This document shows, piece by piece, positions 16,804-45,428 of a DNA stretch of 64,000 bases; position 1 is the first letter of the stretch; every line of letters starts with the position of its first letter. A program made the position numbers and the translations under genes. The stretch comes from a phage. The stretch lies in NCBI GenBank assembly GCA_029942545.1, contig GCA_029942545.1_4114.1, one strand, 5' to 3'. Under the pieces are notes generated by a model, which saw only the letters and a program-made list of their open reading frames with translations, was not told where the DNA came from and ran no database searches.

Positions 16804-17046
16804 ATGAAAGTACTGACAGAACTAGAAATGTATCATAGATTTAATAAGTACTATCATTTACTTAAACCTATACAGAGGATTAAGTGTCCCTTTGTAGTGA
16901 AACAGGTATTAATTTATGAGCATAAGTTATTTGTATCATTAGGTACGAATGAACAAGAGTATTATTTGAAGTTGTACTTGATTACATTAATAGATTTAAT
17001 TCACTATAAAACCAAACAAGCTAATAAAGAGAAATATGAAAACTAA
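16804..17046 (+). CDS. family A small paralog
   Basis: motif LGTNEQEYYL; ATG 16804 directly after upstream stop; track start 16771 is upstream. Confidence 0.6.
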   Translation: MKVLTELEMYHRFNKYYHLLKPIQRIKCPFVVKQVLIYEHKLFVSLGTNEQEYYLKLYLITLIDLIHYKTKQANKEKYEN

Positions 17047-17377
17047 TATTCAACTCAATGTATACAGTTCAGAAGAACATACATATATAAAATGCAGTCT
17101 ATGTAAAGATGTAATGGACTACAAGGGTAAGCCATTCACAATTACTTATGATTCTTATGTTAATGATTTATATATATCATTTCTTAATTACGAAAAGAAA
17201 ATATACAAGCACGTTGATATTAAAGATTTAAGTACTTTATCAGCAGAGGAATACTTTCAGGAATCGTTAGTATGGGATTTGGAGTTTCCTATGCCATTAG
17301 TACACAAAATGGTGGTCCTAATGAAAGAAGCTAAACCGGAGTTTAATGGTTATGAAGAACACATTATTGAGTACTGA
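17036..17377 (+). CDS. family B paralog (FQxS-motif protein)
   Basis: motif SAEEYFQESLVWD; first member of the array. Confidence 0.65.
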   Translation: MKTNIQLNVYSSEEHTYIKCSLCKDVMDYKGKPFTITYDSYVNDLYISFLNYEKKIYKHVDIKDLSTLSAEEYFQESLVWDLEFPMPLVHKMVVLMKEAKPEFNGYEEHIIEY

Positions 17378-17388
17378 TACAAATTATC

Positions 17389-17417
17389 TTGACAGTACGG
17401 TAAGGTAGTGCTATAGT
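17389..17417 (+). promoter_or_regulatory. sigma70-type promoter (TTGACA-N17-TATAGT)
   Basis: -35 17389-17394, -10 17412-17417. Confidence 0.55.
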
Positions 17418-17457
17418 ACTTTCACATTTAATGTACGTTCAATAAAGGGTAGATATT

Positions 17458-17703
17458 ATGTTAAATTTTTTAAATTTCCTTATCGTCTTGTGTATTGTTC
17501 TTGGAATTGCACCGTTTGTATTAGCGTATCTGGATTCAGATGAAATGCAGAAGATGAATTGCACAAAGACAGGACAGAGTAGAGAAGAGACGGTTATGAT
17601 GCCTGTAACGGTTATTGTGAATAACATACCAATTACGAACATGATTCCTACCCTAACGACAACGTACCAGTACTCTTGTGCAGACGGAGAGAGGTGGAGA
17701 TGA
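17458..17703 (+). CDS. small membrane protein (81 aa)
   Basis: hydrophobic N-terminus LNFLNFLIVLCIVLGIAPFVLAYL; own promoter. Confidence 0.55.
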   Translation: MLNFLNFLIVLCIVLGIAPFVLAYLDSDEMQKMNCTKTGQSREETVMMPVTVIVNNIPITNMIPTLTTTYQYSCADGERWR

Positions 17704-18020
17704 AATTTAATATAGCAAAAACATCTAATGTATGTATATTTGGTTATGCTGATGAGTTAGGTGATCTTGACATTCTATTGTACAAAAAGGATGGTGTTAT
17801 GCATTTCAAGTACCAGGATGAAGAGGCAGACAATTATCCTTTACCTAATTTAGTACAAATGCAGGAAGAGGAATTATTCCAGTACAGCTTAGTATATGAC
17901 ATTGATATTTGCACGATGCCAGTACTAATTAATATTCAAAAAGTGATGCTCGATGTGTTTGATAGGCTAATACAAGGCACACAAGGAAGAACCATATATG
18001 TCAATGTACAAGACAATTAA
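17700..18020 (+). CDS. family B paralog
   Basis: motif QEEELFQYSLVYD; ATG 17700 overlaps upstream stop (ATGA); track start 17676 is upstream. Confidence 0.6.
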   Translation: MKFNIAKTSNVCIFGYADELGDLDILLYKKDGVMHFKYQDEEADNYPLPNLVQMQEEELFQYSLVYDIDICTMPVLINIQKVMLDVFDRLIQGTQGRTIYVNVQDN

Positions 18021-19158: not shown

Positions 19159-19710
19159 ATGAATGATATAGAATTATTAGCACACAAGATTAGTACAATA
19201 ATGCTTATCCTCAATAACAACCATCCTATATCGAAGATAGATGGAATCCTGAGTCAGAGGACAGGTGGTAGTTTATATTTGACATTAACAGAGGTTATCG
19301 CAAGGAATTACATTGATATTGAAATCGAGAACAGTGATGCATCAGGAAAGGTTAATGTAGGTGCAGGTGCATTAATCAGTTCAAATCCAGTATCAGCATC
19401 CCCATTAACCAAAGGTGTTAGTACAGGATTCGAAGGGTATTTGTGGTACAATACCAATGATGATTATTTTATATATCAGAAGTCAAATACCAATTACGAT
19501 GAAGATAAGTTTTATTTTATAAACCCCAACGATGAAGCTGAAGTATTTCAAAAATCATTAATTTTAACCCATCATCAGATGTTATATCTAATGTTATTCA
19601 GTACAATGCATTTGAATCCATTAATTAAAGGTTTAAAATTTTATATTCAATTGAAATTAGTCCATGTAGTTTATGATTTATTAATGCAAGGATATAGTTA
19701 TGAAGTATAA
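19159..19710 (+). CDS. family B paralog
   Basis: motif DEAEVFQKSLILT. Confidence 0.65.
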   Translation: MNDIELLAHKISTIMLILNNNHPISKIDGILSQRTGGSLYLTLTEVIARNYIDIEIENSDASGKVNVGAGALISSNPVSASPLTKGVSTGFEGYLWYNTNDDYFIYQKSNTNYDEDKFYFINPNDEAEVFQKSLILTHHQMLYLMLFSTMHLNPLIKGLKFYIQLKLVHVVYDLLMQGYSYEV

Positions 19711-20011
19711 AATGCTGTATACCCCAGATATGATTTATGTTGAATTAGAAGATGATGACGATGGGTGGAATTTGATTTATTCAAGAAGTTCAGGTTGGTA
19801 CATGGCACATTTAAATGATTCGATAGTTACAGATTATTTTTTAGATTTCAATACATTATCCGATGAAGAATTGTTCCAACAGCAATTAGTGATTGACACG
19901 GGTGGTTATGATGTCTTATTATTAAAAAAGATACAGAAAGCTGTTATTGATTTTAAGCCCATGATATGGCAAAGGAAATATTATGACCTCGAAGTACCGT
20001 ACCAGCAATGA
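19700..20011 (+). CDS. family B paralog
   Basis: motif DEELFQQQLVID. Confidence 0.65.
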   Translation: MKYKMLYTPDMIYVELEDDDDGWNLIYSRSSGWYMAHLNDSIVTDYFLDFNTLSDEELFQQQLVIDTGGYDVLLLKKIQKAVIDFKPMIWQRKYYDLEVPYQQ

Positions 20012-20549
20012 AATTCAGTACACCTACGCTAATGCAATCCTTATGGGACAAAAGTTAGCTTGTATTGTTGCAGCCTTATATAATGCCCAGAAATATCACA
20101 AGCGTCATTTCCACAAATGTATTGGTATTATTCCATCGAAGTACAATACATATATTGCGTGCACGAGTCATTTTGATAAACGATTCAATACACCTGATAC
20201 CCCAAATGCCAGTAGTGTTATTGGTCTTTTGGATTTCGCACCTGGTGCTGTTATTGGAAAGAATGATTTAGAGTACACATGGTATAATAAAAATGCCCCG
20301 TTAGTAATGGTAAAATATGATACAGAAACGAATAAAACAATAGAGTACAATACATATAAATCAGAGGAAGAATTTTTCCAAGGTTCATTGCTTGTGCCAG
20401 TGCGTTTGTTGTTTTATAATGTCCTTATTAGTACAGTACACAATAGTCCATTACACAAGAATCACAAAATTAATTTCAATTTTTGTGCTTATGCGATTGA
20501 TGGTGTGTATGAGTGTTTAATGGAGGTATTGAGTTATGAAGCTGAATAA
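19983..20549 (+). CDS. family B paralog
   Basis: motif SEEEFFQGSLLVP. Confidence 0.65.
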   Translation: MTSKYRTSNEIQYTYANAILMGQKLACIVAALYNAQKYHKRHFHKCIGIIPSKYNTYIACTSHFDKRFNTPDTPNASSVIGLLDFAPGAVIGKNDLEYTWYNKNAPLVMVKYDTETNKTIEYNTYKSEEEFFQGSLLVPVRLLFYNVLISTVHNSPLHKNHKINFNFCAYAIDGVYECLMEVLSYEAE

Positions 20550-20877
20550 TACATTTGATATTAATAAGTTAAGAGAATGGTTTTATAGTATTGAAATTGA
20601 AGCCATCCCGTATCATAGATATGAACAATATAATTTAACCAGTATTGATATCAGTGAGTTGTACGCGTATTATCAAAGTGCATTAGAGATGCATAAGTTA
20701 TTTTTGAGTACAGATTTTGTTCTAAATTACAATTTTGAGGAATTTAATAATTATAATTTAGTACAGAAATATGTAGTAGCAAAGTATATGTACCTTCAAG
20801 GAATTACAAGTAATTTGGAATTCAATACAGTCCTTGCTTTAGTTGAGGTAATTTTATGCAGTACATGTATGATTTAG
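20536..20877 (+). CDS. hypothetical protein (113 aa)
   Basis: ORF track; in array but no clear motif. Confidence 0.5.
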   Translation: MKLNNTFDINKLREWFYSIEIEAIPYHRYEQYNLTSIDISELYAYYQSALEMHKLFLSTDFVLNYNFEEFNNYNLVQKYVVAKYMYLQGITSNLEFNTVLALVEVILCSTCMI

Positions 20878-21362
20878 AGTTCAGCTTAGATGCTGCATTT
20901 AAATATGTTCACAAGATAGAAACAATATACAGTACATTATGTGCAATAAAATCAGTAACAGAAGAGCTTGATGTTGGTGAAAAATATCAGGTATGGAATA
21001 ATACATTTCTAAACAAAGAACGTTGCTCTACGGGGTTTAATATTTTAACATTTAATCCCAGCAATTGTTACCCAGAGAAGCATGAACGTTATCCGAATGA
21101 CGACATGTGGTTTGATTACACAAAAGATGGTGATATGTCATCCCTTGTAGTTCCTGATGATTTTAATGCCGAAGATTTAACGGAAGAGTGGTGGTTTCAA
21201 CAGAATTTAGTACACGATGATATTGATTTATTTTTTTATGTAGTATTTAAAATGCTTTACCACAACAATATATTAAAAGATAGTGTGTTTTTTTCATGTC
21301 TATATATTGATGATTTGTACAATGAAATCCAAATCAACATACCCAGAACGCCTGTATCGTAA
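20856..21362 (+). CDS. family B paralog
   Basis: motif TEEWWFQQNLVHD. Confidence 0.65.
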   Translation: MQYMYDLEFSLDAAFKYVHKIETIYSTLCAIKSVTEELDVGEKYQVWNNTFLNKERCSTGFNILTFNPSNCYPEKHERYPNDDMWFDYTKDGDMSSLVVPDDFNAEDLTEEWWFQQNLVHDDIDLFFYVVFKMLYHNNILKDSVFFSCLYIDDLYNEIQINIPRTPVS

Positions 21363-21387
21363 GATATGGGCTTTTTTCGTTTTGGTA

Positions 21388-21416
21388 TTGACAAAGAAGT
21401 GCAAAGCTGTTATCAT
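21388..21416 (+). promoter_or_regulatory. internal sigma70-type promoter (TTGACA-N17-TATCAT)
   Basis: -35 21388-21393, -10 21411-21416; followed by RBS AAGGAG and a GTG start. Confidence 0.5.
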
Positions 21417-21444
21417 GTGTAATCATTTTAAAGGAGAACATATA

Positions 21445-21957
21445 GTGAGTTTCATAATCCCTAGTACATACGAAGATGCATCAAGTGCAGTTCATAAGAT
21501 TCATTATATTTTTAATTTAATTATTAGATCTGCAAAAATTAAAATGTATGCACCTCTTGTGGAATACGATAAAAATGAGGAAATTTTTGTTAGCACAGAC
21601 CAAATTATTTTTCCATATTTCAATGAAGATAGATTGTGGTTCATGCATTTAGCTGCATTACAAAAATATAAAATGTCAATTCGTAATAATTTGGATATAC
21701 CGTTATATCATCCTGATATTGGAGAGGATGAATATTTTCAGTACAGTACAGTACACCGCCATGAAGATATCTTTGTTGCTATGCTTATTGCTAAATTGAA
21801 TACCGTTGATTTGGAGCAGTACAAATACAATAATAAATCATGTAAGATCATAATCCCTGCATTCATAGCTCTTTATGATTATGTGGTGCATAACAAAAAA
21901 GATGATACATATGCTTTCAATGAAGAGTATTTGAATTTTTTTAAGGAGAACATATGA
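21445..21957 (+). CDS. family B paralog (GTG start)
   Basis: motif GEDEYFQYSTVHR; GTG 21445 is 8 nt after AAGGAG; track start 21283 lies upstream of the promoter. Confidence 0.6.
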   Translation: MSFIIPSTYEDASSAVHKIHYIFNLIIRSAKIKMYAPLVEYDKNEEIFVSTDQIIFPYFNEDRLWFMHLAALQKYKMSIRNNLDIPLYHPDIGEDEYFQYSTVHRHEDIFVAMLIAKLNTVDLEQYKYNNKSCKIIIPAFIALYDYVVHNKKDDTYAFNEEYLNFFKENI

Positions 21958-22481
21958 GCAGTGAAGTGCTGAAATCAATGACATTCAATGAAATTGGTAC
22001 ATTTAAAGATAAGATCATTGATTGCATTGAATACATGATTTGTAGTAATATCGAAAGTATCGAGATATTTAACAAGACAAATCGCTCTTACCATATGATG
22101 TACATTGCAAACAATAATGGTATCATTCCATTTATTTCGGATAGTACAATATGGTACGCATGTGATACGAAAAAAACCACAATAGGTTTACATTCATTTG
22201 AGACACATTATGATCTAATTATTCCTGAACATTGTATGCAAGAAGAAGAATATTTTCAAATGCAATGTATACATTCACCATTAGTGTTGTTTAGTTTATA
22301 TATTATACCTTATATCACCAAATGTGTTCATGAGAATAAAGCTCCGTGGAATCATGAATTTGTATCGTTGAAGTTATTGTATAATGTATTAGTAGAATAT
22401 TATGATTACAGGCACAATGGTACAATCAGTGATGTATGGGATTTTGAATCGCTAAGGGTGAAAACATACACAGGTGAATGA
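21954..22481 (+). CDS. family B paralog
   Basis: motif QEEEYFQMQCIHS; RBS AAGGAG. Confidence 0.65.
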   Translation: MSSEVLKSMTFNEIGTFKDKIIDCIEYMICSNIESIEIFNKTNRSYHMMYIANNNGIIPFISDSTIWYACDTKKTTIGLHSFETHYDLIIPEHCMQEEEYFQMQCIHSPLVLFSLYIIPYITKCVHENKAPWNHEFVSLKLLYNVLVEYYDYRHNGTISDVWDFESLRVKTYTGE

Positions 22482-22482
22482 T

Positions 22483-23097
22483 ATGACCAGAATTAAAATG
22501 TATGATTTGATGCTGTACAGTAAAATTGCCATTCCAGTGCTTAATAAAGTGCTGGATGCATTCATTGCCAAATACCCTGAGAATTCAGTGTTATGTATTC
22601 CATTTAGTGTTCCAGATAAAGATGATATATTCCAAGTGAATGTCAGTACACGTGGTATTACATTGCAGCAGAAATATATGGATACGGAATATTATGGAAT
22701 AAAGTTGGATTCAGTACAGGGTTCTAAATCAGCCTATGATTTTTTTGTTCCTAATAACATCGAGTCATGGGAAACAAACATTTCAAAGAAAGATGAAAAT
22801 GATGTTCCTATTAGTGGTGTGTTCAACAATAAAGTTTTTTATTATTACGAAACCGACAAATTCCCTGAAGAGTTATATTACAATTCAGAAATGAATGAAG
22901 ATGTAGATGCATTCATGTTTCAATTATCGTTAGTACATGATATCATTGATGTTCAAGAGTTAAGAGCAGAAATCAATTTAGCTAAAGAGTTATCGGACAT
23001 GCTCCCACCGTTTAGTATGCTTTTTTGTGAAGGAGGTTATTTTTCAAAAGAAGTGTTTGAACATTTCGTAGATGTTGTAAAAGGGTTGGATATATAG
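22483..23097 (+). CDS. family B paralog
   Basis: motif VDAFMFQLSLVHD; ATG 22483 with AGGTGA RBS; track start 22474 is GTG (alternative). Confidence 0.6.
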   Translation: MTRIKMYDLMLYSKIAIPVLNKVLDAFIAKYPENSVLCIPFSVPDKDDIFQVNVSTRGITLQQKYMDTEYYGIKLDSVQGSKSAYDFFVPNNIESWETNISKKDENDVPISGVFNNKVFYYYETDKFPEELYYNSEMNEDVDAFMFQLSLVHDIIDVQELRAEINLAKELSDMLPPFSMLFCEGGYFSKEVFEHFVDVVKGLDI

Positions 23098-23301: not shown

Positions 23302-23817
23302 ATGCATCAACACAAGCATCATTCATATGATTTTGCAATTAACATTATGAAGTTCATTCGAGCGTTGGAGGATGGGAAGCTTAGTCATAAGTACAGGAAA
23401 GAGGGTAACAATTGGTTCAGAAATGATTCCGAGTTCAGTTGTCATAAAATCGTGTATAGTAATCAGTACAGTGCCAATTACCTACAAGATGTAGTGATGT
23501 GTTTTGAATACGTGTTGCAGTTCAGGGGTTCAATCCAAGATGAGTTGATGGAGAACATGTACATCCGATACCTTCCAATGCTCAAAGATGAAAATGTATT
23601 ATTAAATTCAATATACCAACGAGTTCGTGAAATTGAGTGCAGGGATATATTAGATACAGAAGAATCGTATTTCCAGCAATCCCTGATTTATTCACCTGAT
23701 TTATTACAGGTACATAATTTGTTTAATACATTACGTCAGAACATCAGTACAGACATATTTTTGTCATTATCGGATTATGATACATTTGTCAAAGATTTAG
23801 AGGAAATAGGTTTATGA
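23302..23817 (+). CDS. family B paralog
   Basis: motif TEESYFQQSLIYS. Confidence 0.65.
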   Translation: MHQHKHHSYDFAINIMKFIRALEDGKLSHKYRKEGNNWFRNDSEFSCHKIVYSNQYSANYLQDVVMCFEYVLQFRGSIQDELMENMYIRYLPMLKDENVLLNSIYQRVREIECRDILDTEESYFQQSLIYSPDLLQVHNLFNTLRQNISTDIFLSLSDYDTFVKDLEEIGL

Positions 23818-24155
23818 GTCGATTTTCGGTTTGTGTGGTAAACATAAAAAGTGATGGTAGTTTAATTGAATTAGATGTATATGATGATGATAATGCATAT
23901 GGTATTAAAGTACAGGACAATGATGTGCAGTTCAGTTCAAGAACAAATTTTGAAAATCCAGTCCAAGTTCCTAATTTCATAGAAGATGAAGCAGCACGTT
24001 TCCAATACGAAACGGCATATGACAATGTACATATGCATATTATTATGCAACAAAGTTTAGTTCAATTAGTTCCTTTGTTCAGACAAAATATATATGTACA
24101 TGAATTGTCGATCAATGACGTTCGCAGTTCCGTATTGTTCGATACAAATATGTAA
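23814..24155 (+). CDS. family B paralog
   Basis: motif EAARFQYETAYD; ATGA overlap. Confidence 0.6.
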   Translation: MSRFSVCVVNIKSDGSLIELDVYDDDNAYGIKVQDNDVQFSSRTNFENPVQVPNFIEDEAARFQYETAYDNVHMHIIMQQSLVQLVPLFRQNIYVHELSINDVRSSVLFDTNM

Positions 24156-25298: not shown

Positions 25299-25504
25299 AG
25301 ACGTTTCATTTTGACAGGCCGCAGGGGGGGGTCAAAAAAATTTCCGCTGAAAAACATGCTAAGGTATATGTTTAATATAAAGTTTTATATTGTGTTTTTC
25401 AGAGTACAGTTCATGTTTCCTTAAACAAAAAAATACCCCGCCGCTGCTACGTGCTCCTTATATTGGAGTTTACCTTATTAATTACAGTAGAGATTACAAT
25501 TGAA

Positions 25505-34228: not shown

Positions 34229-34254
34229 CACCCTCCGATTCTTTGTGATATAAT
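34225..34254 (+). promoter_or_regulatory. internal sigma70-type promoter with extended -10 (TTGACA ... TGnTATAAT)
   Basis: -35 34225-34230, TG 34246-34247, -10 34249-34254. Confidence 0.6.
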
Positions 34255-37557: not shown

Positions 37558-38068
37558 AGATGATATTCTAATTAGACTAATTAATAGTTTAATAAAGTTC
37601 TCAAATAATGATGTCGATACATACAAAGTGGGGGATATTGAATTTAAATCATTTGGTATGTACGGTGAGGATAAAACATATTATGCGTCAATGAAATTTC
37701 AAGATTTTCACGAGATGTTAATATCGTTATCATATGAAGATGTTGATCCAAGATGGAGTTCCAGTATTTCACTATCGAGAATGGTAATTCGTAGTAAGCA
37801 TCGTTATATTTCGTCAAAGAATACTCCTAACTTGATTAATATTGTGTTGAATGAAAATACAAATCCCCTATCTAAACATGATATCGTACCGTTAACCGAT
37901 GAAGTTATTTTTCAATTGAGTACCATTTGTGATGAAGATGTGATATCATGTATGAAAATTTATGAGAAGGTTGGGAGTGATATTCCCATGAACTATTACC
38001 TAACTATAGATGGAACGTACCTTCGAGATGAGGTTCTAGCGTACATCGACAGTGTTTTACCAAAATAA
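37550..38068 (+). CDS. family B paralog
   Basis: motif TDEVIFQLSTICD; ATG 37550; track start 37502 is upstream. Confidence 0.6.
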   Translation: MDKDDILIRLINSLIKFSNNDVDTYKVGDIEFKSFGMYGEDKTYYASMKFQDFHEMLISLSYEDVDPRWSSSISLSRMVIRSKHRYISSKNTPNLINIVLNENTNPLSKHDIVPLTDEVIFQLSTICDEDVISCMKIYEKVGSDIPMNYYLTIDGTYLRDEVLAYIDSVLPK

Positions 38069-38089
38069 AGACCCGTATGGGTCTTTTTG
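38066..38089 (+). terminator. intrinsic terminator
   Basis: AAAGACCC-GTAT-GGGTCTTT followed by T5. Confidence 0.8.
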
Positions 38090-38155
38090 TGTTTATGGCT
38101 TTACAAGAGCATTCAGGTGTGTTATACTTGATTTTAACTAGAGTTGGAGGAATCT

Positions 38156-38722
38156 ATGAGTACTGAATTAATTAAAGAAGTCACATTACTTCTGAAGCAT
38201 TGTTTTAAGTTCATTCCTGATACTGGCTCACGCCAGTACATTAAAGTTAATGAGAAATATAACATCAATATCCTTGTATCTGAAACTGCGAGCAGTTATG
38301 CAAACATTGAGTTGGATTCTGAAGAAAAATATACAGTATTACAAATCATAGCAGATGTACAACGTAAACAAGATTATCGTTCTTCATTTTACAACGATCA
38401 TCTGTGTGTTTGCTCAAACTTCAGTGAGAATAAAATTGTGTATAAGAATTTATACACACATGAAGTGATTGATACATATAATTATAAAATTTCATCTGAT
38501 GAATACAATGTTCTAATGTTCAACGCAAACCTTTTGTATGATGCCAGTACTGTACGCTGTTTAGAGTTAGCATATAAAATTCCAAAGATCATGGAAAGAA
38601 AAGATTTGATTCACTTTAAAACTATTTTAAAATACAGTACAAAAGAATTAGAGGATTTAGTACAGGCTCTTAAGAATTTCATTAATGAACATGTACCTGT
38701 TAAATTCGAGGATGCACAATGA
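38156..38722 (+). CDS. hypothetical protein (188 aa), possibly divergent family B
   Basis: RBS GGAGGA before ATG 38156; track start 38144 is TTG; degenerate LMFNANLLYD. Confidence 0.55.
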   Translation: MSTELIKEVTLLLKHCFKFIPDTGSRQYIKVNEKYNINILVSETASSYANIELDSEEKYTVLQIIADVQRKQDYRSSFYNDHLCVCSNFSENKIVYKNLYTHEVIDTYNYKISSDEYNVLMFNANLLYDASTVRCLELAYKIPKIMERKDLIHFKTILKYSTKELEDLVQALKNFINEHVPVKFEDAQ

Positions 38723-39303
38723 ACCATATCAGAACTAAAATTTTGAGACTCATGCATGACATTGCAGAACTTTCAGAGATTCATGACATTACAGAAATTG
38801 TTGAATTTGATGATTATCGACTGAAAATTGAAAACAAATCCAAACATCGTTTTGGATCAGTTCAGTTGGATGTATATAAAACTTATGAATTTTCTAAAAA
38901 AATTAAAAGTTCATGGGATACGATTACTATGTACATTCGCACATCCAGAAATCGTGAACGTATTGGTTCTATTTCTTCTAATATGGTATTTGCGAATGCA
39001 TTACATGAAAAAATGAATAAAATTGTAGAATCTAATTTCAGTGAAGATGATGGATTTATTGGGTTGGATGTTCCACCAGAATTAGACCAAAGTGAAGATA
39101 TTCGAGATGCATTCATTTTCCAGAAATCCTTGTTGGACAATTACAAAGAATTCGAGTACTTAATGCTTTGTTACGATACTGCAAAAATTCTTGATTGTGG
39201 TGAACTAGTTATGTACAATGATTTTATCAATTGCAAGACTGATGTTCTGAATACACTACTTCAAAATATAGAATCTGTTAAGGAAAAATATGAACGCTTA
39301 TAG
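38719..39303 (+). CDS. family B paralog
   Basis: motif RDAFIFQKSLLDN; ATGA overlap. Confidence 0.65.
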   Translation: MNHIRTKILRLMHDIAELSEIHDITEIVEFDDYRLKIENKSKHRFGSVQLDVYKTYEFSKKIKSSWDTITMYIRTSRNRERIGSISSNMVFANALHEKMNKIVESNFSEDDGFIGLDVPPELDQSEDIRDAFIFQKSLLDNYKEFEYLMLCYDTAKILDCGELVMYNDFINCKTDVLNTLLQNIESVKEKYERL

Positions 39304-39868
39304 TTATATGACAGAACGCCATCAGTTATTATATGATATCAGTAAAAAAATGCTATCAATTGTTGGTAGTGCGAAAGAAATTGAAAAACAATATCTCATC
39401 CGTGATGTATCAATTTCATCCAAATGTTGGTCAAATGAATATTACGACCACGGTATTCTTACTATTTCTGGGGCCAGAAATATTTGTATTGTAAAAAATA
39501 AAAGTAAAAGTAATGAAGAGTGTGAGATTAGAACCGATATACAAATTAAGGATGATGGAAGTTTTTCACACCACCCATTCCATATTAGTACTGTTGGTGT
39601 TTTATATAATATTAAAGTACTATTCGGTGATGAAGAGTATGTGTTAAAATCTATCAATCCAGATTCAAGTACAGTTGAAGAAGAACTGTTCCAGATGAGC
39701 ACTGTTATACCTGAAGAGGTTCTTAGTACTATTATTTTTTGTAGTTTAATTTATCATGAATACAAAAAGAACCAGTTCGATTTCCACATGTTAGGAACGT
39801 ACATCTTCAATAATTTGAATGTAGATCGTTTAAAAGCATTAAATGCAGCAATGGATAAGGTTATATAA
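39290..39868 (+). CDS. family B paralog
   Basis: motif VEEELFQMSTVIP. Confidence 0.65.
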   Translation: MNAYSYMTERHQLLYDISKKMLSIVGSAKEIEKQYLIRDVSISSKCWSNEYYDHGILTISGARNICIVKNKSKSNEECEIRTDIQIKDDGSFSHHPFHISTVGVLYNIKVLFGDEEYVLKSINPDSSTVEEELFQMSTVIPEEVLSTIIFCSLIYHEYKKNQFDFHMLGTYIFNNLNVDRLKALNAAMDKVI

Positions 39869-40296
39869 TGACAAGAGATGATTGTTTGTACATATGGGAT
39901 ATAATTGAAACTACACTTTCAAATCCAGAAAATTATAAAACAAAAAAAAGACAACGACACAAAATATGGATAGATTTGTTCGTTGAGGGCATACACGCAG
40001 TGACTATTTGGGATTCACCGAGGGCATCAGCATCTACTCTATTGGACAATGAATGCATTGATTGCATTAATTCCACTTTTCATCTCTACGGTACTACATT
40101 TTTCGGTACATTTCTGGATATTGAAAGTAAAGATGATATTGATTCACTTGCGTTACAATACCAAGTACTGTATAATACTAAATTAATTTACGATTTAGTA
40201 CTAGCTTCTTATGTGTATAAATTAATGATGAAATATAATCATATTTCTGTTTCAGTTTATACTAAGGATATTCTTTCATTAAGAGACAAAACATGA
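39868..40296 (+). CDS. hypothetical protein (142 aa)
   Basis: ORF track; no clear motif. Confidence 0.5.
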   Translation: MTRDDCLYIWDIIETTLSNPENYKTKKRQRHKIWIDLFVEGIHAVTIWDSPRASASTLLDNECIDCINSTFHLYGTTFFGTFLDIESKDDIDSLALQYQVLYNTKLIYDLVLASYVYKLMMKYNHISVSVYTKDILSLRDKT

Positions 40297-40802
40297 GTTT
40301 ATTAAATGCACGCGAATTAGTTGAGATGTATGAGATTTTGTCTTCATATAAAAATTCTCATGGAGATGTGATTCTCGACAAAAAGTTCCATGTCAGTGTT
40401 GAACATATATCAAATATAGATATGATTTCTTTGGTGGAAAGTAATAAGTCAGGTCTTGAACGCGATATCATGCGTTTGATTTATATTCCCAAACCATCAT
40501 ATACTAATGATAGTTCAATTAGTAATGAGACATTCATGTATAGTCCTGGTACGGATTCTACTATAGTATCGCTGTCCAATAAATCAATGGGTACTTTCCA
40601 ATTCATCTATACCAGTACTGATAACATTGAAGAAATTGAATTTCAAAACAATACATTAAGTCCATGTAGTAGTGTTATAACCTTTATGTCATATCTATGG
40701 TCAACTAAAACAAGTGCTGTTGTATATAGTTCAAATTATACACAAGATAGTATTGTTGAATCATATAAAGTTCTAAAGGAATACTATGAAAATAACAAAT
40801 GA
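40293..40802 (+). CDS. family B paralog (divergent)
   Basis: motif EEIEFQNNTLSP; ATGA overlap. Confidence 0.55.
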   Translation: MSLLNARELVEMYEILSSYKNSHGDVILDKKFHVSVEHISNIDMISLVESNKSGLERDIMRLIYIPKPSYTNDSSISNETFMYSPGTDSTIVSLSNKSMGTFQFIYTSTDNIEEIEFQNNTLSPCSSVITFMSYLWSTKTSAVVYSSNYTQDSIVESYKVLKEYYENNK

Positions 40803-41367
40803 TTTTATTAAAAGTGTAGTACACCCTATGCTTAGTATTATGAAAAAAATACAGAATCTACCGGAAGATAACGATTACAAGTTTAATCGTTTTGATTCAG
40901 ATGTGTTTTGTATTGAAATTGAAATTAATAACAATCGCAATTTACATTTAAAATTCAAAGAATCGTCAAGTCCGTACTACAACTTTGATATGAATTTTAA
41001 AATAGATACTGACATTGAAGAAAACGTAATATCAAATCATACTAGCAAAAATGGTTTTATGCATAGAACTACTATGTACAATAATAAAAATAGTATTATA
41101 TCTAAATGGAATCATCAATTCACTAAAATTTGTGAAATTGAATATAGTGATTTTGGTGAAGAGAATTACTTTCAGTTAAGTACAATTCATGAACTTCCAC
41201 CGTATGATTATGTTAAAACATGGTTTGATATTCATAATATAATTGATGATGCAATCAAACTTCCATTTGGTGTGTCAATATCATATACTGCTCCTAAAAC
41301 ATTTGTTTTTACTGAAGATATGATTATGAAAAAGATATGGGCAATTATCCCACTTATGATGGATTAA
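40786..41367 (+). CDS. family B paralog
   Basis: motif GEENYFQLSTIHE. Confidence 0.65.
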   Translation: MKITNDFIKSVVHPMLSIMKKIQNLPEDNDYKFNRFDSDVFCIEIEINNNRNLHLKFKESSSPYYNFDMNFKIDTDIEENVISNHTSKNGFMHRTTMYNNKNSIISKWNHQFTKICEIEYSDFGEENYFQLSTIHELPPYDYVKTWFDIHNIIDDAIKLPFGVSISYTAPKTFVFTEDMIMKKIWAIIPLMMD

Positions 41368-41372
41368 ATTCG

Positions 41373-41398
41373 TACCAGGGGTTGACTCTGGTATTTTT
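41373..41398 (+). terminator. intrinsic terminator
   Basis: TACCAG ... CTGGTA stem followed by T5. Confidence 0.7.
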
Positions 41399-41428
41399 GT
41401 ATGATACATTGTCCTAAAGGAGAATTTT

Positions 41429-41980
41429 ATGAACTACAATCATGATCTTTTTACATTATGTGCATCCAAATGTGTTGATGGATGGACAGATAAAATCAAT
41501 ACCATAATTCATCGATATCTGGTCTTTAGTTCTCGTGCACGAAGTGAGGGGGCTATGGATTTCAAATATACACTATCTATTGATGGTGTAACTATCCATG
41601 CAGACGAAGAACGTCTGAGCATTAATTTGTATGATTCCTGTGTATTTGCTATTCACCAAAAGATGGGGAAAGGATGGGGTTGTAATAACATTAACTCAAA
41701 AGCTATCTTTTGGGTTGGTCACCACCAGACAGTACTTGATCCTTCAATCAAATCTAATCTTTTATCCGATAATATGGTTTATGATTTATTGTACTCCGAA
41801 GAACAACATTTTCAGTTAAGTACATTACATGATCTGGCACAGTACGAGGATTGTTACAAAACATTAGAACTATGCCATTCCCTTGAACTTAAAGATAAAT
41901 TGATACAAGTTTACCCTTCATTCTTTCATGAAGAAGTACAAAGTACACTAGATCATATTTTATATGGATACGATAAATGA
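41429..41980 (+). CDS. family B paralog
   Basis: motif SEEQHFQLSTLHD; RBS AAAGGAG. Confidence 0.65.
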   Translation: MNYNHDLFTLCASKCVDGWTDKINTIIHRYLVFSSRARSEGAMDFKYTLSIDGVTIHADEERLSINLYDSCVFAIHQKMGKGWGCNNINSKAIFWVGHHQTVLDPSIKSNLLSDNMVYDLLYSEEQHFQLSTLHDLAQYEDCYKTLELCHSLELKDKLIQVYPSFFHEEVQSTLDHILYGYDK

Positions 41981-42579
41981 GAAAAAGTTATCAAGAAGCT
42001 ATTGACTTAATTCGTGAAGTTATCAAGGTGGCTCCTGCTGCTATTGAGTTCAAGAAGTCCATATACAAGAAGTATGGTTCAATGTCGAGTATGTGCTTTC
42101 AAAAGAAACGTAGAGCATTCACTACCCAGTACTGGAATGATTCTATCATCCTGAGCAATGAGACTCAGCGTATTTTAACACTAGAATCTGAACCTAATGA
42201 GTACGGGGAAGGGAACATTTGTGTACCTGATTATGATGAAATTAACTTCAACTGCGGTGATTTTGAAACAACATTATTACTTCATGAGGGTTATCCAGAA
42301 GGTGATGTATTAGCTGAGTACAATCCAAAAACTAAAATTCTCAAAAGAGGAATCCAGTTCACTATTAATAACAAAGATGATGTTCAAGCAGCACTGATGC
42401 AACTGAGTACAAGTGAACCTATCACTATTAGTGTAGAAGAGTTATGGGGAATTATTTCAGTACTCAATGAGTGCTACAAAGTAAAATCATTGCGTAAACA
42501 CAGCATTATATTACATACCAATATGGCAAATATAAAATGTAAGCACATTCAAGAAATGGTGGTTCCAGATGGACTTTAA
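41977..42579 (+). CDS. family B paralog (divergent)
   Basis: motif QAALMQLSTSEP; ATGA overlap. Confidence 0.55.
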   Translation: MRKSYQEAIDLIREVIKVAPAAIEFKKSIYKKYGSMSSMCFQKKRRAFTTQYWNDSIILSNETQRILTLESEPNEYGEGNICVPDYDEINFNCGDFETTLLLHEGYPEGDVLAEYNPKTKILKRGIQFTINNKDDVQAALMQLSTSEPITISVEELWGIISVLNECYKVKSLRKHSIILHTNMANIKCKHIQEMVVPDGL

Positions 42580-43153
42580 AGAAATTGAAAGTAAATTAAA
42601 GTACTTCAAAGATATCAAACTTCTTTGGAAAAAGTATAAAGTTGATTACAATTTCAGTGATGATGAGACAATAAAATACATTGAGATTAATATCAAAATC
42701 AAGTTCAAGAATAATAATTATGGTGAAGTAACCTTAAATCATACTGGTATATCACTCAAGGACTATGATGGTACAACACTCGCATATTTTGACTTCACAC
42801 CAGAACCAGGTGAAACACTACTTAGTGAGATAAATTCCTATGACATGGAAGTGTTCGGCGGGAATCCGTTACTGTTCCGACTTTCTGAAGAGTGGAGTGA
42901 AGAGTACTATACTTACAAAGATGGTGTAGTACTTGACATTCATGGAGAAGTTGTGAATGACTTGGAAGAACGTTTGTTCCAAGAATTGTGTGTTTCAAAT
43001 ACTTCATATGCATACAATCATATCCTTGACATGTTTGATTTATATAGTAAAATAGATGCTGAAATGAAGGCACATGGTATTCATTACCTTACAATTAACG
43101 ACTATGCTCAACTCGAAACCGCTGTGAAAGCATTGACTAAAGTACTGAAATAG
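42569..43153 (+). CDS. family B paralog
   Basis: motif LEERLFQELCVSN. Confidence 0.6.
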   Translation: MDFKEIESKLKYFKDIKLLWKKYKVDYNFSDDETIKYIEINIKIKFKNNNYGEVTLNHTGISLKDYDGTTLAYFDFTPEPGETLLSEINSYDMEVFGGNPLLFRLSEEWSEEYYTYKDGVVLDIHGEVVNDLEERLFQELCVSNTSYAYNHILDMFDLYSKIDAEMKAHGIHYLTINDYAQLETAVKALTKVLK

Positions 43154-43162
43154 GAATGAAAT

Positions 43163-43576
43163 ATGAAACTGTATCATGCGAGTACTGTAAAAATTGATAA
43201 CTTTTATATCCCGTATGGTGGTCTTCATATGGGAGGTAAACACAGTGCTTTGGAAGCTGCATTACGCAAGCTGAGAAGCCCACTGAACGTAGTAGACGCA
43301 TGTACAGTATACTTGCATACCTTAGAAGTTGATGTTGATAACGTGCTTCTGTGTGAAGATTTAGGCAGTGATGATGAGTGGCGTTCACTTATTGAGAATT
43401 GCACTGCTCAAGGTTATGATGCTGTTCAGTACAAAAATGACTACGAGCCTGATAATGTTCCTAGCTTTATGATTTGGGATGCATCTAAAGTTCGCATCAT
43501 TGAAGTTGATGCTATGCATATGGATGAAGCTGAAATGATTATCGAAGATTTTCTTGATGAATATGAAGGTGTATAA
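43163..43576 (+). CDS. hypothetical protein (137 aa), non-family insert
   Basis: ORF track; LYHAS...GGLHMGGKHSA; no family motif. Confidence 0.5.
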   Translation: MKLYHASTVKIDNFYIPYGGLHMGGKHSALEAALRKLRSPLNVVDACTVYLHTLEVDVDNVLLCEDLGSDDEWRSLIENCTAQGYDAVQYKNDYEPDNVPSFMIWDASKVRIIEVDAMHMDEAEMIIEDFLDEYEGV

Positions 43577-44112
43577 TGACTGACCCGATGGTAGCACTGG
43601 CACGTACTAAGTTACTATTAAAGATTGGTGAGATTTTTACGGTTCTTCTGTCCAATAATATTGATATTACTGAGCTAGATATTAAGCAACCGTGGGAAGT
43701 GACTATGTTCTCGGCGTTCCACCGATTGTCATATAAAGGTGAAAGTGTTCTTGATTTTAACCCTAAAGCAAAATTCATAGATTATGCTGCGTTGTACAGA
43801 GAGTTGCACCGAAATATTTATTCCGGTTGTATAACCAATAACTTCAAAGAAATTAAAGTTCAAACTGCATCACATGAGTTCAATGATTTACTTTATCCAG
43901 AATTTAATCTAACGGAAGAATTACTCTTTCAGTACTCGTTAATTCTCACAAATCTCGAAACACTAGAGTTCTACAAAGAGTTAGTAGATATTTTTATGAA
44001 TACACGACTTTCAAAAGATATTGTGATATTCTGGTATACAGAGCATGTTACGGAGGAATTGCTTACTGAATTTCTTCTAAATATGACAGCTATAAAGGAG
44101 AAGTTATGTTAG
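43576..44112 (+). CDS. family B paralog
   Basis: motif TEELLFQYSLILT. Confidence 0.65.
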   Translation: MTDPMVALARTKLLLKIGEIFTVLLSNNIDITELDIKQPWEVTMFSAFHRLSYKGESVLDFNPKAKFIDYAALYRELHRNIYSGCITNNFKEIKVQTASHEFNDLLYPEFNLTEELLFQYSLILTNLETLEFYKELVDIFMNTRLSKDIVIFWYTEHVTEELLTEFLLNMTAIKEKLC

Positions 44113-44579
44113 ATATTTTAGGAAACATCGATACTGCAAATTATTTTATCCAGGACGCACTGTTCAATACAGTTCAACAAGGATTAGAAGTTCGTCATAA
44201 CGTTTACCAAGGTGATGGTTATTTCGTTGATATTGTTGAGGCACGAAAGAATACGTTTAATGTTAACATTACAACACTGGGTAGACAGAACATTGCACGA
44301 ATTTTAGTAAGTAAAGATGAAATTGTATTGAGATACAGTGCTAAGTTTATGTTGACTTATAAGAAAAAAACTGATATGTTCAGTACTAATTTATTTGATG
44401 AGCCATTTGACCTTGAAGATATTGAAGCTACTTTCTTTACTCAAAGTACTATGGTAAAATACACTGATGTTCAATTTTCTGCTGATGTAATGTCAGAAAC
44501 ATTACAAATGATCAAGGTATTATTTTATGCATTTGAGCAATTTAGAGAAGAAAGAAACAAGGTTAACAACCACAGATGA
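44106..44579 (+). CDS. family B paralog (divergent)
   Basis: motif EATFFTQSTMVK. Confidence 0.55.
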   Translation: MLDILGNIDTANYFIQDALFNTVQQGLEVRHNVYQGDGYFVDIVEARKNTFNVNITTLGRQNIARILVSKDEIVLRYSAKFMLTYKKKTDMFSTNLFDEPFDLEDIEATFFTQSTMVKYTDVQFSADVMSETLQMIKVLFYAFEQFREERNKVNNHR

Positions 44580-44940
44580 ACTAATAGAGGCGATGACTAA
44601 GGAGTCAAAATACCACAAAGGGATTCGTCTATATTTTATAGATATTGGTTCAATGGAAGGCATATACATTTATGGTTCACAATCTTTATCTTATGATGTA
44701 ATGCCAAAAAAACATGTAAAAATCTTTTTAGGTTCAAATAAAAAAACTTTCTTGACAATTAATGATAAAAACGTTATTATGAATTCGTTGGGTCATGATA
44801 AGGTGGAAATTGATCTAAACACACTGGAGGATATTGATTTTTTTCAATACGAGTGTTTAGGTGTTGACTTACATGGCATTAGTAGCGATATGATAAAATC
44901 ATTAATCAAATATTTCGAAGGTGTTCATAAATGTATCTAA
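44527..44940 (+). CDS. family B paralog (divergent)
   Basis: motif EDIDFFQYECLG; start uncertain (ATG 44527 overlaps upstream gene by 53 nt; alternative ATG 44593). Confidence 0.5.
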   Translation: MHLSNLEKKETRLTTTDELIEAMTKESKYHKGIRLYFIDIGSMEGIYIYGSQSLSYDVMPKKHVKIFLGSNKKTFLTINDKNVIMNSLGHDKVEIDLNTLEDIDFFQYECLGVDLHGISSDMIKSLIKYFEGVHKCI

Positions 44941-45428
44941 CTAAATCAATGAAAAATTCATTTGATAAAATCAAGAGTTGTCTTGATGGGGAAAATATTA
45001 CAAGTGTTACACAAACTGCTGACCAAATTCAAAGCAGTTCAAGTGATTGCACTGTTATTTTTGGTTTACATAGTCTGCGTTTATCAATAGTAAATAATAT
45101 TGACAACACTGCTATTGTAATCACACCATGCAATATTCAAAATGAAAATGGTGTATATCTTCATCACATGGGAACAGTATTTCACATTTTCAATTCAAAC
45201 GAAAACATTGTTAAGGAATACAATACTCTTAATATTGATTCAGGTGAATTATTTCAAATGAGTACTTTGTACTCATGTAATTTTACAGATACTTCATGTA
45301 TTTTGCCATTTTTCTTGGAAATTATTAAGAAAATGGAAAATTTAAAACGTGAATACAATAAAGAAATGGTTCCTGAAGCTATATTAAATATTACTAATGC
45401 TATAGAGAAGTATAATGCAGTGACTTAA
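44931..45428 (+). CDS. family B paralog
   Basis: motif DSGELFQMSTLYS. Confidence 0.65.
   Translation: MYLTKSMKNSFDKIKSCLDGENITSVTQTADQIQSSSSDCTVIFGLHSLRLSIVNNIDNTAIVITPCNIQNENGVYLHHMGTVFHIFNSNENIVKEYNTLNIDSGELFQMSTLYSCNFTDTSCILPFFLEIIKKMENLKREYNKEMVPEAILNITNAIEKYNAVT

Follow-up and report, generated by a model that had tools for sequence, protein, structure and literature searches.

The interval from 17036 to 45428 of the 64,000-nucleotide stretch of phage DNA analyzed here (the window) is occupied by a tandemly arranged gene family with about 45 intact paralogs and about 7 that have decayed (Table 1). At a probability of roughly 0.45, we propose that these genes may encode an early, diversified repertoire of host-binding proteins for takeover or anti-defense. 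Escherichia phage 121Q (Asteriusvirus) and the window share 99.3% identity, and judged by its sequence, the phage that carries the array is a 121Q-like jumbo coliphage. The interval corresponds to 121Q gp342 to gp408, and every gene there is annotated as hypothetical. An acidic-FQ motif is present in 45 of the 65 + strand ORFs of at least 60 aa, located 40 to 75 residues before the C terminus, and about 7 further ORFs have a decayed motif (FT at 32027 and 44106, MQ at 41977, LQ at 39868, FN at 38144, and FS at 36455). The figure of about 50 tandem paralogs given by a sequence-only reading was thus fair, but its statement that nearly every ORF carries the motif was slightly generous, as the rest are small non-members. 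Some of these are strays from another, 70-aa family. The 4-nt overlaps that it had described were found at exactly that length at 14 gene junctions, and 49 of 64 array junctions overlap to some extent when ORFs are called from the first start. Both outliers that it had placed downstream, at 56512 to 57776, carry the motif.

Table 1. Features of the array and its relatives in the window (all on the + strand)
Position	Feature	Size (aa)	Motif or sequence	Evidence	Remarks
17036..17377	Member, short form	113	AEEYFQESLVWD	HMM; leave-one-out E 1.3e-11	
17389..17417	sigma70-type promoter		TTGACA-17-TATAGT		With TG; intergenic gap
17676..18020	Member, short form		EEELFQYSLVYD	HMM	Start 17700 per 121Q annotation
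19159..19710	Member	183	EAEVFQKSLILT	HMM	
19700..20011	Member, short form	103	DEELFQQQLVID	HMM	
19983..20549	Member	188	EEEFFQGSLLVP	HMM	
20856..21362	Member	168	EEWWFQQNLVHD	HMM	
21350..21416	Terminator-like hairpin, then promoter			11/12 promoter matches	Hairpin 21350-21371; promoter 21388-21416, with TG
21415..21957	Member		EDEYFQYSTVHR	HMM	ORF from GTG 21283; likely start ATG 21415 as in PBECO4
21954..22481	Member	175	EEEYFQMQCIHS	HMM	
22474..23097	Member, HMM-borderline		DAFMFQLSLVHD	HMM E 1.1e-3	Motif at residue 145
23302..23817	Member	171	EESYFQQSLIYS	HMM	
23814..24155	Borderline member	113	EAARFQYETAYD	HMM E 6.8e-3	
24166..24708	Member		DESLFQYSTMYD	HMM	ORF from 24094; likely start MSLLDTLEK at 24166
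25451..25888	Member, short form		DAALFQEALVFD	HMM	ORF from GTG 25451; likely start ~25511
26109..26477	Member, short form	122	EEEFFQESTVWN	HMM	PBECO4 without syntenic counterpart
26477..26833	Member, short form	118	AGELFQAELVFD	HMM	
26830..27189	Member, short form	119	DGELFQEALVFD	HMM	
27199..27693	Member, long acidic form	164	EEYYFQQSTVYD	AF2 pLDDT 87.4, pTM 0.82	pI 4.05; modeled
27695..28165	Member	156	EDYYFQQSTIYN	HMM	
28162..28602	Member	146	EEYYFQQSLIFN	HMM; BFVD match A0A097EXS5	
28605..29093	Member	162	EEYYFQNSTIYN	HMM	
29071..29523	Member	150	EEYYFQNSTVYD	HMM	
29520..29834	Member, short form	104	ESFIFQESLVWD	HMM	
30139..30588	Member	149	EEGYFQGSTVYE	HMM	
30585..31121	Member	178	DEQCFQLSCTDP	Motif; clusters with RaK2 ORF	Missed by HMM
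31476..32036	Member	186	EENIFQNSVLHD	HMM	
32027..32629	Probable degenerate member	200	EDAMFTNDITMG	Position, size, and motif remnant only	Q to T
32635..32997	Member, short form	120	EDELFQESLVWD	AF2 pLDDT 82.6, pTM 0.77	Modeled
32921..33364	Member		EEEMFQYSTVFN	HMM	121Q-implied start 32987; PBECO4 without syntenic counterpart
33343..33684	Member, short form	113	EGELFQESLVFN	HMM	
33644..34228	Member		QEYYFQLSLLFP	HMM	121Q-implied start 33692
34225..34254	Perfect sigma70 promoter			12/12 matches	With TG; 59-nt gap before 34288
34288..34764	Member	158	EEEFFQYSTVYP	HMM	
34761..35255	Member	164	EEMYFQGSCIHD	HMM	
35221..35583	Member, short form		EEELFQQSTIST	HMM	121Q-implied start 35248
35567..35980	Member	137	PDELFQYSLVFP	HMM	
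35968..36471	Member		EESYFQNSLIYT	HMM	121Q-implied start 35980; PBECO4 allele only 66% identical
36455..36997	Possible degenerate member	180	MERIKFSLSDNE	Position and size only	
36994..37557	Member	187	ESAMFQLSLIHN	HMM; clusters with RaK2 ORF424	
37502..38068	Member		DEVIFQLSTICD	HMM	121Q-implied start 37550
38067..38128	Terminator hairpin, then promoter-like site				Hairpin 38067-38086; site 38100-38128
38144..38722	Possible degenerate member	192	NVLMFNANLLYD	Position and size only	
38719..39303	Member	194	DAFIFQKSLLDN	Motif	
39290..39868	Member	192	EEELFQMSTVIP	HMM	
39868..40296	Possible degenerate member	142	DSLALQYQVLYN		
40293..40802	Member	169	EEIEFQNNTLSP	Motif	
40786..41367	Member		EENYFQLSTIHE	HMM	121Q-implied start 40828
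41372..41410	Terminator-like hairpin overlapping promoter-like site				Gap before 41429
41429..41980	Member	183	EEQHFQLSTLHD	HMM	
41977..42579	Possible degenerate member	200	QAALMQLSTSEP		
42569..43153	Member	194	EERLFQELCVSN	Motif	
43163..43576	Embedded non-member "anchor" gene	137		tblastn, matches in 75 phage records; synteny	
43576..44112	Member	178	EELLFQYSLILT	HMM	
44106..44579	Probable degenerate member	157	EATFFTQSTMVK		Eneladusvirus ortholog L002 24758-25204
44527..44940	Member		DIDFFQYECLGV	Motif	RaK2 ortholog: NEIDFFQYTCGDA
44931..45428	Member	165	SGELFQMSTLYS	HMM; clusters with RaK2 ORF	Final gene of the array
48132..48986	Single-copy longer putative relative	284	PDDLMFQLMLTG	Motif resemblance only	Sequence at ~residue 75
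56512..57090	Outlying member	192	LPEHFQISTLYD	HMM E 2.5e-3; sequence	
57087..57776	Outlying protein with motif	229	SEEEHFQLMMM	HMM E 8.9e-3; sequence	Motif at ~residue 127

The family consensus is [ST]EEx[YL]FQxS[TL][VI][YHF][DN]. A strict pattern, [ED][ED]x[YFLWM]FQx[STNQ], matched 24 times in the + frames and never in the - frames, and a slightly wider one matched 27 times in the called ORFs, compared to a shuffle mean of 0.04 (maximum of 1; 500 shuffles), confirming that the motif, the array, and its co-directionality are real. The core had been called invariant, which holds for F and Q; S is conserved at about 90% and the acidic pair at about 80 to 85%. The acidic-FQ was kept by 153 of 154 collected homologs. 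F (TTT 26, TTC 19), Q (CAG 25, CAA 20), and S (AGY 24, TCN 10, from both codon sets) are each written with mixed synonymous codons, which shows that selection on the motif is at the protein level.

An iterative HMM grew from 12 seeds to 38 members. As previously described, the N-terminal halves are strongly diversified compared to the short core. Similarity beyond the motif was significant within subfamilies only. When the motif was masked or excised (12 to 13 residues), the HMM and profile-profile signals between subfamilies were mostly lost; the status as a single family therefore rests on the motif, common architecture, tandem placement, and predicted fold. The sequence-only reading had held that a lack of similarity beyond 8 to 10 residues would count against a family. 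At the sequence level this is half the case between subfamilies, but it is offset by the common predicted fold.

The family proteins are predicted from their sequences to be small (100 to 205 aa), soluble, and mostly acidic, with a median pI of 4.84 and a median net charge of -9. AlphaFold gave confident models of two members, one long (27199..27693) and one short (32635..32997). Their motifs occupy H114-120, within blocks of pLDDT 95 to 96, and H64-73, respectively. Both share the element order sheet, helix, helix, strand, in which a variable beta-sheet leads through the motif helix and a long amphipathic helix to a final strand. The modeled domain is thus alpha/beta: an antiparallel beta-sheet is followed by a short helix and, after a turn, by a long amphipathic helix, and a beta-strand closes the domain. 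Long forms are predicted to have an extra N-terminal and C-terminal helix. Searches of Pfam, NCBIfam, PADLOC, and PDB sequences returned no matches to the family, and the 41 different PHROGs matched are each labeled "unknown function," in agreement with the earlier description of one very large uncharacterized phage family. The long model matched BFVD models of uncharacterized RaK2, GAP32, and Serratia BF proteins (15 to 17% identity; TM up to 0.6 to 0.7), and the predicted fold appears to be without a clear known or characterized relative.

In the models, the motif spans the short helix and the turn and also caps the N terminus of the long helix, and it lies in the best-predicted region (pLDDT of >90). 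This placement makes a structural keystone of the predicted fold the preferred reading of the invariant core, and a role as a linker or cleavage site is disfavored. Helical periodicity and pLDDT suggest that F and Q are buried. The segment after the motif, described earlier as hydrophobic, is instead an amphipathic helix, neither a membrane segment nor a hydrophobic anchor, and no member has a genuine hydrophobic 19-residue window. The core is probably not an "effector" motif. A common ligand or partner site would also fit, since a purely structural core would not usually contain a polar Gln that is invariant or a Ser conserved at 90%. Under the keystone reading, the motif would staple the helical layer onto the sheet and would therefore have survived while the remaining sequence drifted to about 15% identity. 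Specificity would be conferred by the diversified sheet, together with its loops, which are often acidic.

The array is positioned close to the left terminal repeat, on its inner side. In CBB, it begins 64 bp past the 22,456-bp terminal repeat, and the offset to fEgEco12 (terminal repeat of 20,993 bp) places it at about 28 to 56 kb from the left end. Upstream of the array are at least 20 consensus sigma70 promoter cassettes. Gaps within the array are few, and promoters are located in them. Promoter-like sites were not enriched over shuffles of the AT-rich DNA, and therefore, only intergenic ones were counted. Given the position next to the terminal repeat and the sigma70-type promoters, the host RNA polymerase would be expected to transcribe the array early, reading inward through long operons whose genes are translationally coupled. 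The family proteins are non-virion proteins, presumably made for use within the infected cell: none of the 62 proteins of the phAPEC6 virion proteome falls between gp348 and gp548 (the ortholog of 27199 is gp442c), and the label "structural protein" in the GAP32 and CBB records is on no family member.

The one-to-one PBECO4 orthologs gave a median dN/dS of 0.25. Each paralog is under purifying selection, and the genes are real. Whole-gene dN/dS against these orthologs gave no sign of positive selection, and an arms race is thus not demonstrated. Terminal-repeat adjacency and the dense sigma70 promoters upstream are consistent with a binding repertoire for host takeover or anti-defense, as are the acidic, soluble proteins, virion absence, purifying selection, and lineage-variable copy number. 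In such a repertoire, the paralogs would most likely bind and neutralize different host proteins stoichiometrically, one target each, and gene birth and death would expand or contract the set in each phage lineage.

Synteny of the family holds in all RaK2-like genera, but copy number is lineage specific. Compared to about 45 copies here, there are about 6 to 9 in Mimasvirus and Eneladusvirus (about 9 in Eneladusvirus, about 8 in GAP32, and about 6 in CBB) and at least 27 in RaK2. On an A4-like contig, 13 of 14 genes belong to the family, as do 18 of the 19 on a metagenome contig that is unplaced. The expansion is lineage specific and centered on the anchor gene, which is kept at the same place within the array across all RaK2-like genera. 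Downstream, orthologs of the single-copy longer putative relative (48132..48986) from all genera keep [DE]ExMFQLxT.

The region of the window from 26000 to 34000 is 99.3% identical to Escherichia phage 121Q (Asteriusvirus, 348.5 kb) and 92 to 97% identical to about 20 further jumbo coliphages. The tandem array of family B, the paralogs that share an acidic-FQ-x-S core (17036-45428, + strand), corresponds to gp342 to gp408 of 121Q, and every gene there is labeled "hypothetical protein" in both 121Q and its relative PBECO4. The array contains 65 + strand open reading frames (ORFs) of at least 60 amino acids (aa). The acidic-FQ motif is present in 45 of these, 40 to 75 residues from the C terminus, and about seven others of fitting size and position carry a decayed form (FT, MQ, LQ, FN, or FS). 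The claim of about 50 tandem motif paralogs, made in the sequence-only reading, is therefore fair, although "nearly every" ORF is slightly generous: the remaining ORFs are small nonmembers, some being strays of a different 70-aa family. A strict regular expression for the motif gave 24 matches in the + frames and none in the - frames, and on called ORFs there were 27 matches compared to 0.04 expected from shuffles. Both outliers at 56512-57776 carry the motif and 4-nt overlaps occur at 14 array gene junctions, as had been proposed. The supposedly invariant core is invariant at F and Q, whereas S is conserved at about 90% and the acidic pair at only about 80 to 85%. The "hydrophobic segment" said to follow the motif was not upheld: it is predicted to be an amphipathic long helix, and a 19-residue hydrophobic scan found no genuine transmembrane-like window in any member. 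The only hydrophobic 19-mers were in the over-extended N termini of two ORF calls, which rules out a membrane anchor after the motif. The proteins are acidic, with a median pI of 4.84 and a median net charge of -9 (extreme, -26 with a pI of 4.05); five members are neutral or basic (pI >7).

No significant match was found when 46 members were scanned against Pfam, NCBIfam, and PADLOC, with scattered single matches all at E values of >3e-3, and a profile search against PDB sequences returned nothing at E values up to 10. The members are spread over 41 PHROGs, none with an assigned function; phrog_12674 and phrog_13866 are each matched by 20 to 23 members. These resources gave nothing usable for a known-family assignment, in agreement with the earlier statement that no characterized family has this signature. 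A beta-clamp-binding motif was also considered. The bacterial motif (QL[SD]LF or QxxLxF) lies in a disordered terminus and places L directly after Q, with a hydrophobic residue at +3 and an aromatic one at +5. In the family B segment Q-x-S-L-V-[FYW], agreement is limited to Q, +3, and +5; residue +1 varies, T occupies +3 in half of the members, and the motif is both structured and internal, so this candidate was rejected.

BLAST alone splits family B into several clusters. An HMM seeded on one 12-member cluster reached 38 members, and all were recovered in leave-one-out runs. Most of the HMM score came from the motif, and once the motif was masked, significance was left only for the closest subfamily. 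In profile-profile comparisons, the clusters of long members were joined over 125 to 150 columns with 96 to 99% probability and two clusters of short members at 97%, but long and short clusters were linked only via 20 to 50 columns around the motif. Outside the motif, almost no signal between subfamilies was obtained, either from leave-one-out HMMs with masking or from hhalign runs on the N- and C-terminal parts, and unifying the subfamilies by sequence beyond the motif failed. Since the motif-excluded signal between long and short clusters is nearly nil, the unity of family B rests on the motif together with the architecture that members have in common, their tandem position, and their predicted fold. 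The concern that similarity might not extend beyond the motif half stands at sequence level between subfamilies and is offset by the shared predicted fold.

Structure models were obtained for one long and one short member. The long member at 27199-27693 (53-sequence alignment; pLDDT, 87.4; pTM, 0.82) is predicted to consist of an N-terminal helix, six strands, a short helix, the motif helix (residues 114 to 120), a turn, a long helix (126 to 140), a strand, and a helix. The short member at 32635-32997 (pLDDT, 82.6; pTM, 0.77) has five strands, the motif helix (64 to 73), a long helix (82 to 97), and a closing strand. In these models the two forms have the same core, with terminal helices added in the long forms. 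The motif falls in the best-predicted blocks of both models, where it is helical with a pLDDT of >90, and its conserved positions run along one helical stripe; the variable region of the long model contains acidic low-confidence loops. The motif opens with an S/T N-cap and acidic N1-N2, continues through a hydrophobic pair and S into a brief extended segment of the type T/L-V/I-aromatic, and ends in a D/N/P N-cap, a pattern that is by itself what a helix-turn-helix corner requires. Because of this pattern and its place in the best-predicted blocks, we interpret the motif as the probable keystone of the predicted fold, a reading taken from the models overall rather than from inspection of their coordinates. 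A Foldseek search of BFVD matched only uncharacterized proteins of 121Q, RaK2, GAP32, and Serratia BF, with a common sheet-plus-helices architecture at 15 to 17% identity and TM scores up to 0.6 to 0.7, and we treat these matches as analogy. The comparisons also covered the Mam33/p32 (PF02330) acidic matrix protein fold, which has an N-terminal helix, a seven-stranded antiparallel sheet, and two C-terminal helices, as well as the RNA polymerase beta/RPB2 lobe-protrusion domain; neither gave a clear assignment. No convincing match was found in the PDB, and the fold has no clear known relative.

The gene rnlA, which together with pseT lies near the family B cluster, was too widespread (1,551 records) to serve as a synteny anchor. 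A 137-aa nonmember gene embedded in the array (43163-43576) worked, as it lies inside the array in every RaK2-like genus. Its homologs occur in all of these genera plus some Vibrio phages, and its invariant residues include H5 and Y90-x-N92-x-x-E95. An H..S/T...Y..E pattern is present and one GenBank record names the protein a putative ADP-ribosyltransferase, an assignment that we did not adopt, as Pfam and PDB sequence and profile searches were empty. Around this anchor gene there are about 9 tandem motif ORFs in Eneladusvirus, about 8 in GAP32, about 6 in CBB, at least 27 in RaK2 (a truncated locus), and about 45 here. An HMM search of 1.84 billion representative proteins yielded 129 clusters, all of 65 to 215 aa and none with an extra domain. 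Acidic-FQ is kept in 153 of 154 collected homologs, with about 15% identity in the rest of the sequence. The motif was present in 13 of 14 genes of an A4-like metagenome contig and in 18 of 19 tandem genes of an unplaced 14-kb contig from Logan SRR30397393 (locus L008). The latter contig had no blastn match among 50,697 phage records, indicating an unsampled lineage with its own family B expansion. A degenerate DNA pattern of the motif found only 121Q, RaK2, and one 174-kb UViG in IMG/VR.

Compared to PBECO4, the window paralogs have 1:1 orthologs that are mostly 83 to 100% identical, and the median dN/dS for family B was 0.25 versus 0.14 for other window genes, which rules out hypervariability among close relatives. 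Two genes (26109-26477 and 32921-33364) have no syntenic PBECO4 counterpart. At 35968-36471, the PBECO4 allele is just 66% identical with a dS of 0.67, suggesting allele replacement rather than fast point evolution. We read family B as old, with each copy maintained by selection, and as expanding and contracting by lineage.

The array has few gaps, in which good sigma70-type promoters and hairpin terminators are located (see the table). Overall, promoter-like sites were no more frequent in this AT-rich DNA than expected by chance, and weight is therefore given to the intergenic ones alone.

Predicted promoters and terminators located in gaps of the family B array
Window position	Feature	Consensus matches
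17389	Sigma70-type promoter	
21350-21416	Promoter and hairpin terminator	
34225	Promoter	12/12
38067-38128	Promoter and hairpin terminator	
41372-41410	Promoter and hairpin terminator	

The first ~10 kb of the window (1-10100) contains at least 20 near-consensus sigma70 cassettes (TTGACA-N17-TATAAT), including 10 copies of a 54-nt repeat, TTGACA-N17-(GTACTG)TATAAT. The termini of phage fEgEco12 have been mapped, with a repeat of 20,993 bp (PMC13070987); by offset to fEgEco12, positions 1-10100 are probably inside a terminal repeat of about 21 kb, and fEgEco12 orthologs put the array about 28 to 56 kb from the left end. The first family B member of CBB begins 64 bp past the 22,456-bp terminal repeat, and the authors of that genome suspected that RpoD-type promoters mark early regions reaching into the repeat (PMC5259590). 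Taken together, the intergenic sigma70 promoters, the position next to the terminal repeat, and this view of the CBB promoters indicate that family B is likely transcribed early by the host RNA polymerase. Our literature search found family B described nowhere and no expression data or transcriptome for RaK2-like phages.

None of the 62 proteins of the phAPEC6 virion proteome lies between gp348 and gp548, and the ortholog of the gene at 27199 is gp442c. In the GAP32 and CBB records, all "structural protein" labels are on other genes and none on family members. We tentatively favor, with a probability of roughly 0.45, the reading that family B is an early, intracellular, soluble multigene family targeting host proteins for takeover or antidefense. 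The figure is no higher because the functional step comes from genomic context and from analogy with the terminal multigene families of large DNA viruses. The keystone motif would keep the fold intact, and each paralog would owe its separate binding specificity to the diversified sheet and loops, with host proteins (takeover or antidefense) as the likeliest targets. Alternatively, family B could be made up of adaptors, in which the acidic-FQ-x-S helix docks every paralog on one hub (a host protease, RNA polymerase, or the array's conserved small protein) and the variable half recruits about 50 different targets to it, by likeness to poxvirus ankyrin/PRANC or F-box adaptors. This would suit the invariant F and Q and the 90% conserved S (153 of 154 homologs keeping acidic-FQ against ~15% identity elsewhere), the single helical stripe of conserved positions, and the retention of the nonfamily gene at 43163-43576 within the array in every genus. 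However, the motif falls where both monomer models are most regular and most confidently predicted, and its N-cap S/T, acidic N1-N2, hydrophobic pair, and N-cap D/N are what a helix-turn-helix corner requires in any case; the adaptor has no known partner, and across the 129 representative clusters (all 65 to 215 aa) the module is never fused to other domains. We regard adaptors as possible but unlikely. That the FQ helix is a common docking, degron, or ligand site leading about 50 recognition modules to one hub, as a phage equivalent of F-box or PRANC proteins, is doubtful; if true, one jumbo phage would redirect or destroy dozens of host proteins via a single machine. It is decidedly unlikely that the paralogs are mimics or sponges, imitating DNA or RNA or binding a common small ligand in a motif-lined groove, with DNA-binding defense proteins or signaling-based immunity as targets. 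The strong negative charge (to -26, pI 4.05) and the acidic low-confidence loops of the variable region would be expected of such proteins, but five members have a pI of >7, no structural match to Ocr, ArdA, Arn, or known sponges was found in the PDB or BFVD, and about 50 copies are hard to square with one ligand.

The remaining alternatives carry much less weight. The motif has the E..YFQ pattern of a TEV/3C site (consensus E-x-x-Y-x-Q/[G or S], cut at the slash), and a Gln-specific 3C/TEV-like protease might cut E-E-x-Y-F-Q-x-S and free the variable N-terminal half. The match covers P6 (E in 125 of 153), P3 (Y in 72 of 153), P2 (F), and P1 (Q in 153 of 153), and several members read EEGYFQGS. 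In most members, however, P1' is not G or S but Y, Q, L, N, or E, with the conserved S at P2'. The segment is modeled as a helix with a pLDDT of >90 in the folded core rather than an exposed linker, the models place a C-terminal strand beyond the motif that would complete the domain, and no chymotrypsin-like protease was present among the scanned window proteins, leaving a processing site very improbable. We give equally little credence to packaged proteins that would enter the capsid and be delivered with the DNA to disarm host defenses, as from the T4 internal-protein loci. Family B is small, acidic, and diversified, as are T4-type internal proteins, and a figure legend describes an inner body in phAPEC6 by cryo-electron microscopy. 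A virion or internal-protein role is nevertheless disfavored by the phAPEC6 proteome, in which none of the 62 proteins maps to the array, and is further opposed by the lack of "structural" labels on members in the GAP32 and CBB records. The N termini are not conserved across the family and have no conserved targeting or cleavage sequence; the conserved element is internal. Finally, the motif lies at a regular spacing of about 120 to 220 nt upstream of the next start codon, which could point to a nucleotide-level element (promoter, recombination site, or RNA signal), and functionless duplicated DNA was considered with it. Codon choice at the invariant residues varies freely among synonyms, with Ser drawing on the AGY and TCN sets alike, indicating that the constraint acts on the protein and not on DNA or RNA. 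With no matches on the - strand, an ortholog dN/dS of about 0.25, and 1:1 conservation over species and genera, codon usage and purifying selection refute such an element or junk DNA, to which we assign virtually no probability.

The favored reading, a host-directed multigene family, draws on the terminal multigene families of large DNA viruses, such as MGF360/505/110 of African swine fever virus (ASFV) and the ankyrin/PRANC, Bcl-2-like, and kelch families of poxviruses. As in these, dozens of diverged, co-directional tandem paralogs lie beside a genome terminus (64 bp past the repeat in CBB) with lineage-dependent copy number (about 6 to 9, at least 27, or about 45), and diversified surfaces are joined to a conserved scaffold or short module. 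Family B is related to them neither in sequence nor in structure, and its host is a bacterium; a role in immune evasion or host range is established for some of the viral families and would apply to family B by analogy. Like family B, the T4-type hyperplastic early regions group small genes that look nonessential and diverge fast; they lie close to rnlA and pseT and follow sigma70 early promoters. In contrast to family B, they consist of unrelated ORFans, and T4 internal proteins are packaged and have a cleaved N-terminal targeting sequence, whereas family B is one family that is absent from the virion proteome. Bacillus phage G has a zinc-ribbon family of about 35 copies whose function was only guessed (PMC7824862), which is also one small domain amplified tens-fold in one jumbo phage. 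Family B has a different fold without metal-binding residues, is syntenic in at least four genera, and is larger (about 45 to 52 copies).

The sequences are public, and earlier papers mentioned the paralogs in passing: "nearly 10% of gene products are paralogues" in RaK2 (PMC3622015) and 22 paralogous ORFs in CBB (PMC5259590). The jumbo-phage survey (PMC7824862) does not mention family B. What appears to be new is the recognition of a single superfamily sharing an invariant FQ motif, along with the fold predicted for it, the cross-genus synteny, and the copy-number dynamics. As a protein family it has no known relatives; as a kind, it is a lineage-specific expansion in a jumbo-phage early region and ranks with the largest paralog expansions observed in phages. 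This one unstudied family accounts for about 8% of both the sequence and the gene count of a 350-kb genome, and comparable arrays occur in every RaK2-like jumbo phage, with Escherichia, Klebsiella, Cronobacter, Pectobacterium, Erwinia, Serratia, and Yersinia as hosts; several of these phages are under development for therapy. Dozens of hypothetical proteins in 41 PHROGs are thereby reduced to one problem of one scaffold, one invariant motif, and many specificities. If members bind host proteins, the array would be a ready inhibitor library against E. coli and Klebsiella proteins and defense systems, as well as a test case for terminal multigene family strategies in bacteriophages.

Several features were observed around the array. 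Family A, about 30 BLAST-linked paralogs of 63 to 96 aa (11038-17046, 17998-18449, and 31099-31486), is directly upstream of family B, with a few copies interspersed within it. Two 284-aa proteins (46102-46956 and 48132-48986), single copy in all genera, have FQ-motif variants, one with LYTFQFELSF about 45 residues from the C terminus and the other with PDDLMFQLMLTG near residue 75; both are possible founders, or longer relatives, of family B. A third small tandem family of five paralogs of 88 to 103 aa is found at 52495-53904. Downstream of the array (50226-51277, 58038-59180, and 60004-60936) are genes for a Dam-like methyltransferase, a cytidylyltransferase, T4-type RNA ligase 1, and a polynucleotide kinase/phosphatase. 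The last two form a tRNA-repair module of the anti-PrrC type, and the block from methyltransferase to kinase/phosphatase is syntenic in all RaK2-like genera. At 6588-7229, a 213-aa protein gave subthreshold protein-kinase Pfam matches (E values of 1.6e-3 and 2.8e-3). Behind many of the sigma70 cassettes in 1-10100, a GGGGAGAA...TCTCCCC hairpin directly precedes the RBS of a small gene. There was no Rfam family match anywhere in the window. A 90-nt element is present three times (4097-4186, 7239-7328, and 9164-9253), with a promoter embedded in the inverted repeat GGGATTGACTCC/GGTCAGTCCC followed by a conserved CCCACAGGGTGCA, and could be a regulated promoter or a small RNA.
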